UHGV virus genome: UHGV-0089955
Source: a virus
DNA length: 17,733 bases
Reading direction: 5' to 3' (one strand)
Shown: positions 9,048 to 9,460 of the stretch, one piece after another
Layout: the number at the start of each line of letters is the position of its first letter
How positions within the stretch are numbered: the stretch's first letter is position 1
The notes under the pieces: generated by a model
The model's input: the letters and a program-made list of their open reading frames with translations, nothing else
Told to the model about the DNA's origin: nothing
The model's database searches: none
Program-made: the position numbers and the translations under genes

Positions 9048-9460
9048 TGTGCAGCTCCCGTGCTGATGAGATAATAATTTTGTGATGTGGTTTTCATGGA
9101 TTCCCCCTCACATGGCTGGTGGCCTCCCCAAAGGCTGCCAGCCTCCCTTCTGATTCAGCTCCTCTGAAAAATCACTCTTCCAGGAAGAACCCTTTTCGTT
9201 TCTCAGCGCCTGAGCGCTTTGTACTACCTTGCTGATACGGGCGTTTTTTTAAATTGCGCCCTTAAGACAGTGATCTACTTAACCAATGGATCTCTCCTGT
9301 TGGAAAAGACCCTATTCCTGCCCCAACACCCAATCCCCCCTTACCCCCCTTACCCTCTTCCCCATAAAAACGTACTACTTCCCTAGTACACATGAGGAGT
9401 TGGGTCAGTTGGTTGCCAACCTGAACAGGCACCTTTAAGCCTGCTTCTGTTCGGGTACCT

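Follow-up and report, generated by a model that had tools for sequence, protein, structure and literature searches.

What is the function of a stretch of 413 bases that holds no gene and lies directly ahead of the replication genes of a lambdoid prophage? The question is raised by the viral genome UHGV-0089955, of which a stretch of 17,733 nucleotides (nts), hereafter called the window, was analyzed; it is a lambdoid prophage of Escherichia coli with its early-right operon on the minus strand. The operon runs from a cro-like gene through an open reading frame (ORF) of 102 amino acids (aa; 9461-9769, minus strand; phrog_852, assigned no function), the gap (9048-9460) and the gene of a RadD-like superfamily 2 (SF2) helicase (7389-9047, minus strand; 552 aa with a C-terminal zinc ribbon) to a Toprim primase, a 285-aa protein and Q. 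The original prediction, made from the letters of the sequence, placed a structured non-coding region here and named a replication origin, a tR1-type terminator and a put-like antitermination RNA as candidates. Structure prediction and comparative covariation, which it had proposed as checks, were run, and covarying hairpins were found. The reading that we favor, with a probability of about 40%, is that an element in the gap (core 9370-9268; flanking hairpins and palindromes 9469-9220) is the cis-acting replication origin, or an initiation zone, of a module of SF2 helicase and Toprim primase of the Eru1-like kind. The analysis also brought out features that lay beyond the original prediction, namely a sense-strand tract of G-quadruplex grade, covariation in the hairpins, a three-part mosaic with a scar, and an upstream ORF possibly coupled to the helicase.

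For the comparison, about 100 loci with relatives of the 102-aa ORF and the helicase were used. They came from genomes of Pseudocitrobacter, Enterobacter, Citrobacter, Trabulsiella, Superficieibacter, Pseudescherichia, Pectobacterium and Salmonella, from IMG/VR viral contigs, and from the phages Fostie, Yersinia YP3, Cronobacter ENT39118, Fels-1, phi467, Klebsiella phages, the Eru1 Stx2a phage F765 and a Vibrio phage. VR50, E110019 and other strains carry the gap sequence with 100% identity; it is held by 80 of 5426 complete genomes.

Layout and conservation of the gap

ORFs of 30-56 aa can be drawn on both strands of the gap, and their frames are broken in relatives by indels of 1-2 nts. Variable sites of the gap are distributed over the three codon positions as 50/40/40, with no three-base periodicity, compared with 25/17/87 in the first 100 codons of the helicase gene. 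A protein-coding gap is ruled out by the indels together with the absent periodicity. The GC fraction of the gap is 0.48-0.52, and each of its strands folds better than shuffled controls do (z = -3.8 and -5.0), so that the ORF-free, structured character of the region directly ahead of the helicase and primase genes is confirmed by indels, lack of periodicity and folding. In Fostie (L001), two small coding sequences (CDSs; 3572-3688 and 3738-3860) are annotated over the element, and the indel pattern and homology suggest that they are spurious; the same is suggested for the small or opposite-strand CDSs annotated over the 102-aa ORF homologue in two Klebsiella phages (1980-2366 in L223 and 2591-3010 in L344).

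Nucleotide diversity (pi) was determined from 57 distinct window-type sequences. It was 0.02-0.07 in the core of the upstream part of the gap (9379-9275) and 0.03-0.07 in the unit next to the helicase (9184-9065), in comparison with about 0.11 in the helicase gene and 0.07-0.36 in the 102-aa ORF. Similarly, the gap is 88-93% identical to that of the three phages compared (from E. coli, Yersinia and Cronobacter), whereas longer alignments that add flanking helicase and 102-aa ORF sequence are 82-87% identical. The gap is a genuine non-coding control region whose core is conserved above the flanking genes. Conservation among prophages that share the replication genes, on which the original prediction had staked its case, was found, the region being kept in every relative examined. 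The 102-aa ORF and the helicase adjoin in every complete locus, and the spacer between them has several lengths, from ~330 to ~1000 nts. Searched against Rfam 15, the gap reaches no gathering score, and an E-value of up to 10 yields just three noise hits of 12-16 bits. A sigma-70 promoter scan found none on either strand of the gap, and no convincing match to an integration host factor (IHF) site or to boxA was seen within it.

Inspection of the diversity and of the relatives divides the gap into three units: the upstream element (9469-9220), a scar (9219-9162) and a helicase leader (9161-9048). In the scar (minus strand), pi is 0.11-0.18 over most of the segment and drops toward the 9162 end, which makes it as variable as coding DNA. 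The AGCGC hairpin of the original prediction is present here (AGCGC-CTGA-GCGCT, 9205-9218); it is deleted in L087 and variable elsewhere and, judged from these comparisons, it is dispensable. This slot is filled in Fels-1, phi467 and the Stx2a phages by phrog_1347, whose product of 122-125 aa has a PD-(D/E)xK-like IDC...EVDK motif, and in other relatives by an HNH/NUMOD4 gene. The only match of the window to the 122-aa gene is an 11-mer, TCCTGGAAGAG, corresponding to codons 11-15. The L060 type and two deleted prophages have a junction at the motif TTCCTGGAAGAGTGA (9172-9186), as do several mosaic forms. The segment 9219-9162 is accepted as a probable gene-deletion scar or mosaic junction. In the defective prophages L025 and L028, homology with the window stops at 9170, right after TTCCTGGAAGAGTGA (their 3085-3100 correspond to window 9186-9170), and there the early region gives way to a TonB-like gene and Nu1.

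These observations bear on the proposal that the whole gap is functionless, a mosaic junction or remnant of a deleted gene which looks conserved through recombination between lambdoid phages. The scar-like segment with its replaced genes, its single shared 11-mer, its deletion or mosaic junctions at TTCCTGGAAGAGTGA and its diversity at the level of coding sequence all agree with the proposal, but it applies to ~58 nts only. The remainder of the gap is more conserved than the surrounding coding sequence, selection spares the G-runs described below, compensatory changes occur in at least four helices, and the element persists where the helicase protein is only ~65% identical. For 9469-9220 and 9161-9048 the proposal is already contradicted by pi, G-run selection and covariation, and for the gap as a whole we regard it as highly improbable. 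Apart from the upstream element, the helicase-primase module has no long non-coding sequence that is strongly conserved, and no description of the element was found in the literature searched or in Rfam.

G-tract, GATC box, palindromes and hairpins of the upstream element

On the sense strand, the upstream element consists, in order, of two hairpins with a UUAAAGGY loop (HP1 and HP2), a variable spacer, a palindrome with a T-run (P1), a G-tract, UCUUUUCCAACAG, a GATC box, a hairpin with an A-run in its loop and a second palindrome (P2). The original prediction had noted a tandem repeat and pyrimidine tract at 9335-9363. The repeat is present (CCCCCCTTA, 2.3 copies, 9335-9355, within the C-rich tract of the plus strand), but the informative reading is its reverse complement: the operon is on the minus strand, and therefore the pyrimidine tract is a G-tract in the transcript and in the non-template strand. 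This G-tract, GGGGAAGAGGGTAAGGGGGGTAAGGGGGGATTGGGTGTTGGGGCAGGAATAGGG (9310-9363, minus strand), is the sole stretch of the window with an absolute G4Hunter score of at least 1.5 (-2.4) and the most strand-asymmetric 55 nts of the window, the sense strand being 82% purine, 61% G and 2% C. It is placed 3′ of the stop codon of the 102-aa ORF and 5′ of any conserved ORF, that is, it is transcribed and untranslated. When substitutions were counted in the 57 sequences, 3 of 29 G-run positions had changed, compared with 15 of 28 other positions (Fisher, p = 6e-4), a pattern indicating that the G-runs are under selection. Related G-tracts occur in all enterobacterial relatives, including F765.

The conserved box that follows, UCUUUUCCAACAG then GAGAGATCCATTGGTTAAGTAGATCACTG (9268-9309, minus strand), has a pi of 0.03 and contains GATC at 9272-9275 and 9289-9292. 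The GATC box within it has the consensus (CAT)(A/T)GGTTA(A/G)GTAGATC(N)CTG (9296-9268) and begins 140-220 nts past the point at which the 102-aa ORF ends. No subtype has fewer than one GATC. The order of G-tract, CCA(A/G)nAG and GATC box holds in all enterobacterial relatives, even in those whose helicase is 64-66% identical (Pectobacterium L017, Salmonella L020 and Stx2a_F765); G-tract and GATC box are retained in the Eru1 Stx2a phages (65% helicase identity), and in Stx2a_F765 they occupy the same slot. A search of viral contigs with GGTTARGTAGATCNCTG gave 113 matches, and 100 of these contigs also carried the helicase; the other 13 were deleted prophages, truncated loci or chance matches within unrelated genes. 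This near confinement to helicase contigs is counted in favor of an origin, since it means that the element is locked to the module.

Next to the box is the A-run hairpin, GGGCG-(CAAUUUAAAAAAA)-CGCCC (9239-9261, minus strand), with a conserved run of 5-7 A and a stem that covaries, GGGCG/CGCCC being replaced by GGGCA/UGCCC in Fels-1. Where a GAAG hairpin replaces the last G-runs, its stem covaries as well (GUGC-GAAG-GCAC, GCGC...GCGC or GCCC...GGGC). Of the two palindromes, P1 (UGUACUA-GGGAAG-UAGUACG, or GTACTA-N6-TAGTAC; 9371-9390, minus strand) is followed by the T-run at 9364-9370, and P2 (GUAUCA-GCAAGG-UAGUACA; 9220-9238, minus strand) is ~150 nts away, the P1-P2 spacing being 147-154 nts in all subtypes. 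According to RNAalifold, the 5′ arm of P1 pairs with the 3′ arm of P2, and compensatory changes in Klebsiella L223 and Yersinia YP3 fit this long helix slightly better than two local hairpins. The GTAC arms of P1 are kept across the subtypes except in L038 and L075; in these two, the helicase is 99% and the 102-aa ORF 96% identical to those of the window, yet the GTAC palindromes are swapped for TAGACGTC(T/C)A motifs, in two to four or more copies at similar positions, and in L075 four or more motifs of this type flank the core. As the palindromes are wholly different despite a nearly identical helicase and 102-aa ORF (L038), neither protein is the sequence-specific reader of them. A gene of ~91 aa, NUMOD4/HNH-like, is found between the element and the helicase in L038, L075, L020 and L344. 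It coincides with the replacement of the palindromes by TAGACGTC in L038 and L075; in L020 and L344, related CAGACGTT motifs lie downstream of the GATC box. The gene could be what is left of a homing endonuclease, or could encode a DNA-binding protein specific to the subtype. The cI/Cro operators at 10060-10110 (TTTATCGG/CCGATAAA, ATATTC...GAATAT) were compared with the GTACTA/TAGTAC palindromes and found to be unrelated, and the likeness of GATCACTATAGGGG in one relative to the T7 promoter core was judged coincidental.

P1 and its T-run are the part of the element that bears on the tR1-type terminator, the gap then mainly limiting early expression of the replication genes and Q. The candidate, and the only hairpin with a U-run behind it, is GUACUAGGGAAGUAGUAC followed by GUUUUUAU (9390-9364); T-runs precede the G-tract in distant relatives too (L017, L020, L223 and L072), and the window type has a short C-rich, G-poor stretch between HP2 and P1. 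However, the stem is only 6 bp long, AU-rich and unreported by the terminator scan. The U-run varies in close relatives (TTTTTAT, CTTCAAT, TTTCGGT and TATTAAT within the window type) and is absent in Fels-1 and phi467, no other part of the upstream element is as poorly conserved as the P1/T-run segment (pi 0.11-0.18), and a terminator would leave the nearly invariant 100 nts after it unexplained. The terminator is therefore a weak candidate, and we hold it to be quite unlikely. The C-rich stretch was also tried as a rut site and rejected, being only ~25 nts long in the window type and not common to other subtypes.

The strongest covariation was found at the 5′ end of the element. HP1 (CGGGU-UUAAAGGU-ACCCG; 9452-9469, minus strand) overlaps the stop codon of the 102-aa ORF (9463-9461), and HP2 (CAGGC-UUAAAGGU-GCCUG; 9426-9443, minus strand) can be extended by an imperfect stem to 9419-9456. 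The twice-repeated ACCTTTAA(G/A)CC motif of the original prediction is present (9421-9441 and 9447-9467), and TTAAAGGT occurs three times in the window against 0.55 expected. Both are 18-nt hairpins, set in tandem, in which the 8-nt loop UUAAAGGY is invariant and the stems of 5-7 bp are not: at least five unrelated stems were found (CGGGU/ACCCG, CAGGC/GCCUG, CCGGGC/GYCCGG, GGUC/GACC and CUGAC/GUCAG), and HP2 of ENT39118 has a compensatory change from C-G to U-A. In 44 distinct copies, 93.8% of the stem cells were paired, compared with 72% after shuffling and 30-45% in slid controls; 5 of 7 stem pairs were altered on both sides, and the observed covariation was reached in 0 of 500 shuffles. When 47 distinct copies were examined over the first six pairs of the stem, 23 G-T wobbles were counted against 4 A-C mismatches. 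This excess indicates that the hairpin forms on the sense strand. The hairpins are confined to loci whose 102-aa ORF is at least ~62% identical to that of the window, and are missing or different in the clades at 45-55%. A search for the TTAAAGGT hairpin found none on the pL (plus) side of the window, and in the complete 38.6-kb phi467 genome a single stemmed TTAAAGGY hairpin was found, with no further copy.

Such hairpins invite a different explanation, that the element is a structured RNA in the pR transcript which controls elongation into the replication genes and Q. We consider this possible but tentative. The UUAAAGGY hairpins might then be boxB-like and be bound by a protein, for which the 102-aa product is a candidate, or by RNA polymerase directly, a proposal that we likewise put forward with reserve. 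How such a complex would act is a similarly uncertain matter; it may resist Rho or weak terminators in the long leader, or gate read-through, with P1-P2 enclosing a domain of ~170 nts. The strong covariation, the invariant loop and the sense-strand-specific wobbles speak for an RNA, as do the further covarying helices (the GAAG hairpin, the A-run hairpin and the long-range P1-P2 helix). Also in its favor, the ~400-nt untranslated leader would otherwise be open to Rho, and the element keeps a fixed distance past the 102-aa ORF with gene insertions tolerated downstream, as is the case for nut and put sites. The 102-aa ORF, translated just upstream, has an invariant Arg-rich helix (ENRARHEANxRLRxF), and the restriction of the hairpins to its closer variants is counted here as well. 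The phage, moreover, has no N-like gene: the original prediction was right that none is evident, and none was found in the window, including the pL-type operon. Eru1 Stx phages lack N, CII and CIII and have a DEAD/DEAH helicase and a Toprim primase downstream of cro (PMC8044961, Llarena et al. 2021).

Other observations fit an RNA poorly. It matches no Rfam family, and a second copy is absent from the pL side of the window and from the complete phi467 genome. From the gap to Q there is no strong intrinsic terminator-like site, the scan giving weak ones inside coding sequence only. Conservation is lacking for the boxA-like CGCTCCTCA, which also overlaps the coding sequence at its end, and the G-runs and conserved GATC sites are left without a role. 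The transcript is G-rich and C-poor and would therefore be a poor Rho substrate even unaided. With regard to the 102-aa ORF, its homologues in the Serratia, Vibrio and Shewanella phages examined are inside replication/recombination clusters and have other genes directly after them. In Serratia phage Eta (L339), Vibrio phage L3 (L341) and Shewanella phage 1/41 (L342), the homologue stands just after a helicase and a PD-(D/E)xK or resolvase-like gene, a gene context that links phrog_852 to replication/recombination modules and not to lysis-lysogeny control. The ORF, which had been placed at the cII position, is not a cII analogue, since in relatives having a CII-like gene it is located downstream of that gene. 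Its AlphaFold model is all-helical and of low confidence (pLDDT 58), too poor for a fold search. As for the put-like antitermination RNA that had been suggested, it is unsupported, the element having two 18-nt hairpins, no pL counterpart and no strong terminator before Q. The small RNAs AgvB, AsxR and Pas of enterohemorrhagic E. coli (EHEC) prophages were also considered and set aside, being located downstream of pR′ and not at the gap.

The element as a candidate replication origin

The gene set of the window is the "Eru1" kind of replication unit of Stx phages, the window helicase being ~65% identical to Eru1A. No recognizable initiator (O, Rep or a DnaA-like domain) was found among the module proteins (helicase, primase, 102-aa ORF and 285-aa protein), and scans for tandem repeats and AT-richness gave no other candidate origin or iteron array in the early-right operon or in the complete phi467 genome, where no G4-type tract is stronger than the element. 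Entire genes (the 122-aa PD-(D/E)xK-like gene and HNH/NUMOD4) have been inserted between the element and the helicase with the element undisturbed; therefore the element works from a distance and does not serve the helicase as a translational operator. The GATC sites are counted for an origin because they matter only in DNA, and so is the fact that the hairpin-forming sense strand is the strand that an R-loop would displace. Vibrio phage 1.148.O has a classical origin-like region in the same slot, where its homologue of the 102-aa ORF is separated from the helicase by a terminator, repeated motifs of the TACCG type that look iteron-like by eye, and a RepL-like gene; this is likewise counted in favor. 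Some subtypes carry GCGAAGC, which Hirao et al. are said to have found to be an unusually stable mini-hairpin of single-stranded DNA, reported at the phiX174 origin.

Three pieces of background make an origin of this kind conceivable. R-loops are nucleated by G-clustered untranslated transcripts in ColE1 RNA II, mitochondrial CSBII and switch regions; lambda ori requires transcriptional activation from pR; and an SF2 helicase can be an origin-binding protein, as is UL9 of herpes simplex virus 1 (HSV-1). A specific version of the origin reading can be assembled on this basis, namely an initiator-independent, transcription-triggered origin at which an R-loop, formed by pR transcription of the G-tract, is stabilized by the G-quadruplex and hairpins of the displaced strand and the RadD/PriA-like SF2 helicase and Toprim primase assemble directly; in this detailed form we judge it unlikely. 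For the favored reading in its broader form, an origin opened by transcription and perhaps by an R-loop, the proposed course of events is as follows. Upon prophage induction, RNA polymerase starting at pR (about 10042) would pass cro and the 102-aa ORF and enter ~400 nts of untranslated sequence. The nascent RNA over the C-rich template would there have the G and purine content given above for the G-tract (61% and 82%), an arrangement that should favor a persistent RNA:DNA hybrid. The displaced G-rich strand could fold into a G-quadruplex and the covarying hairpins and so hold the duplex open. The opened DNA would serve as the loading place for the phage helicase and the priming place for the primase, and an initiator of the lambda O type would be unneeded. 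The GATC box and flanking palindromes may be recognition or regulatory sites, for example for Dam/SeqA or for a protein of the module.

Several points weigh against an origin. Direct repeats come in pairs in the window type, not in an iteron array of three or more, and there is no long AT-rich unwinding element, the longest A/T run being 13 nts (9243-9255). The sole exact DnaA box (TTTTGCACA, 9016-9024, minus strand) is inside the helicase codons N-F-A-Q; ~0.03 would be expected in this 500-nt region, but the coding sequence accounts for its conservation. A functional RNA would be equally expected to show covarying hairpins with wobbles of the G-U type and a loop that is conserved. Because the palindromes differ in L038, they cannot be read sequence-specifically by the helicase or the 102-aa ORF product. 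Some phage families with similar helicases, such as the Streptococcus thermophilus phages, have their origin downstream of the primase gene. The literature searched gives no experimental origin mapping for any Eru1-type phage, and a term search of the Eru papers PMC8044961 and PMC8951638 returned no mention of a replication origin, iterons or a non-coding or intergenic element. Among the candidates of the original prediction, the replication origin nevertheless remains the best, although it is unproven and atypical in lacking an iteron array and a long AT-rich stretch.

A 15-mer, GGGGGGTAAGGGGGG, was rejected as evidence, as copies of it occur in unrelated viral contigs in mixed contexts (iteron-like repeats, initiator-like ORFs, terminase genes and a methyltransferase). 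Among the matches listed, the contigs with GGGGGGTAAGGGGGG include L139, L165, L167, L199 and L104 (IMG/VR); of the initiator-like ORFs, that of L139 alone has a weak HTH_36 match, and those of L165 and L167 have no Pfam hit.

In the literature searched, no origin is described for the helicase-primase (Eru1-like) lambdoid phages, including the Stx2a phages of the O104:H4 (2011) and O103:H25 (2006) outbreaks, and in such phages the toxin dose is set jointly by replication and by pR-to-Q transcription. The element is a concrete, mutable target for the question of how Eru1-like phages start replication without an initiator of the lambda O type. If the transcription-triggered origin is true, it would be a phage counterpart of ColE1/CSBII priming and the replication start of the Eru1 Stx2a phages of both outbreaks; if the element is an RNA instead, it would be a new means by which lambdoid phages control early transcription independently of N. 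In both cases, experiments can take hold of the covarying UUAAAGGY hairpins, the G-runs under selection, the GATC sites and the palindromes.

The surroundings of the element and known systems

The third unit of the gap, 9161-9048, is shared with Fels-1 and phi467 and absent from the L060 type, and is proposed to be a separate unit, the translational leader of the helicase. The hairpin GGCTGG...CCAGCC of the original prediction lies here (9114-9143, minus strand), but what had been described as a 6-bp stem is a 12-nt imperfect one: GGCUGGCAGCCU-UUGGGG-AGGCCACCAGCC, or GGCTGGTGGCCT/AGGCTGCCAGCC as arms, with 12-nt arms that are 83% complementary and a 6-nt loop. Its pi is 0.03-0.04, and its presence in Fels-1 and phi467 and absence in the L060 type follow those of the unit. 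Between hairpin and helicase is an upstream ORF, MKTTSQNYYLISTGAAQWS with its stop codon (19 codons, 9038-9097, minus strand), preceded by a Shine-Dalgarno sequence GAGGGGG (9103-9109), and its stop overlaps the ATG of the helicase (ATGGAGCTGA). The frame is open in 56 of the 57 sequences, with a length of 18-19 codons, and its variable sites fall 9/8/8 on the codon positions, indicating that the frame is kept and the peptide itself is not selected. Judged from the sequences, the upstream ORF is a possible device for translational coupling. A weak antisense promoter candidate, TTGTGC-17-GATAAT (9047-9075, plus strand), was found by hand and is below the scan threshold; a candidate antisense RNA of ~70 nts, in the style of lambda oop, would be complementary to the helicase leader, run to about 9150 and end at the hairpin 9114-9143 followed by TCCCTTCTGATT.

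The other genes of the region are arranged as follows. A promoter scan places a pR-like promoter at 10070-10042 (minus strand), and the YdaS/Cro-type helix-turn-helix (HTH) gene behind it probably starts at 10018 (minus strand). On the plus strand are cI (10139-10831) and the pL-type operon, whose first gene is an HTH regulator. Downstream of the helicase, the Toprim/zinc-ribbon primase (6419-7387, minus strand) is followed by the 285-aa protein, of no assigned function, and by Q (4747-5562, minus strand), then pR′ and tR′. Downstream of Q are two copies of the small RNA STnc100, three tRNA genes and a NanS-p-type esterase, a late-region layout of the Stx-phage type without stx, and a low-GC ORF of 314 aa (phrog_7003) lies between Q and the tRNAs on the opposite strand; the side features are located at 2545-2757, 2953-3161, 3298-3540 and 334-2322 (minus strand) and at 3666-4610 (plus strand). 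Nine Chi sites (GCTGGTGG) occur in the 17.7 kb against 0.5 expected, at 2104, 5227, 7082, 7541 and 9115 on the plus strand and at 5300, 8381, 14318 and 15940 on the minus strand; the one at 9115-9122 is inside the leader hairpin. In this respect, the window fits the "high-Chi" kind of lambdoid prophage (PMC12315714).

When the element was compared with known systems, lambda nutR was similar in its place after the first gene or genes of the pR operon, in its short hairpin with a conserved loop and variable stem, and in the small protein with an Arg-rich helix nearby. It differs in having a GNRA-like pentaloop in place of the 8-nt UUAAAGGY, which here comes in two tandem copies. The boxA consensus of nut, CGCUCUUUA, has its nearest counterpart in CGCTCCTCA, with 2 mismatches, at 9476-9484, inside the end of the 102-aa ORF and not conserved across subtypes, and a nutL counterpart and an N homologue are lacking. 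putL and putR of HK022 likewise are structured RNAs that act in cis, again in an early operon and in a lambdoid phage that lacks N. In the HK022 record, put is unannotated, and a repeat search did not bring the sites out. The put RNA is ~70 nts long, has two stem-loops with a triplex and is found after both pL and pR (PMC9378689). This described architecture sets it apart from the two 18-nt hairpins on the pR side only. The missing pL-side counterpart, together with the single stemmed copy in phi467, removes the two-site architecture that defines nut and put systems.

On the side of origins, lambda ori resembles the element in being within the replication module of the pR operon, and replication from the element would similarly depend on pR transcription through or near the site. 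However, lambda ori is part of gene O itself, with four iterons that O binds and a region rich in A and T, whereas the element is intergenic and without an O-like protein or iteron array. Compared with iteron-type origins, the window type has two-copy repeats only; in the Vibrio relative, repeats at the corresponding place are clearly iteron-like. HSV-1 oriS with UL9 offers a candidate analogy, an SF2 helicase with a palindrome or hairpin element, but the palindromes here vary between subtypes with 99% identical helicases, which argues against the helicase as their sequence-specific reader. The single-strand initiation (ssi) signals of G4, phiX174 and RSF1010 are stable hairpins of single-stranded DNA, including GCGAAGC, that act as priming or loading signals.

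The likeness to ColE1 RNA II and CSBII/OriH lies in a G-clustered untranslated transcript over a C-rich template, inside or ahead of replication functions. Those systems need no initiator protein and no iterons, and the G-runs of CSBII can form a G-quadruplex. They differ from the element in that its R-loop is only hypothesized and that the replication proteins here are a phage SF2 helicase and a Toprim primase, and they are without the conserved-loop hairpins and GATC box that the element carries. We would class the element with the origins or early-operon control regions of phages, from which it differs in lacking their usual hallmarks, and the hallmark of R-loop origins that it does have is the clustering of G on the non-template strand of a transcribed, untranslated stretch.

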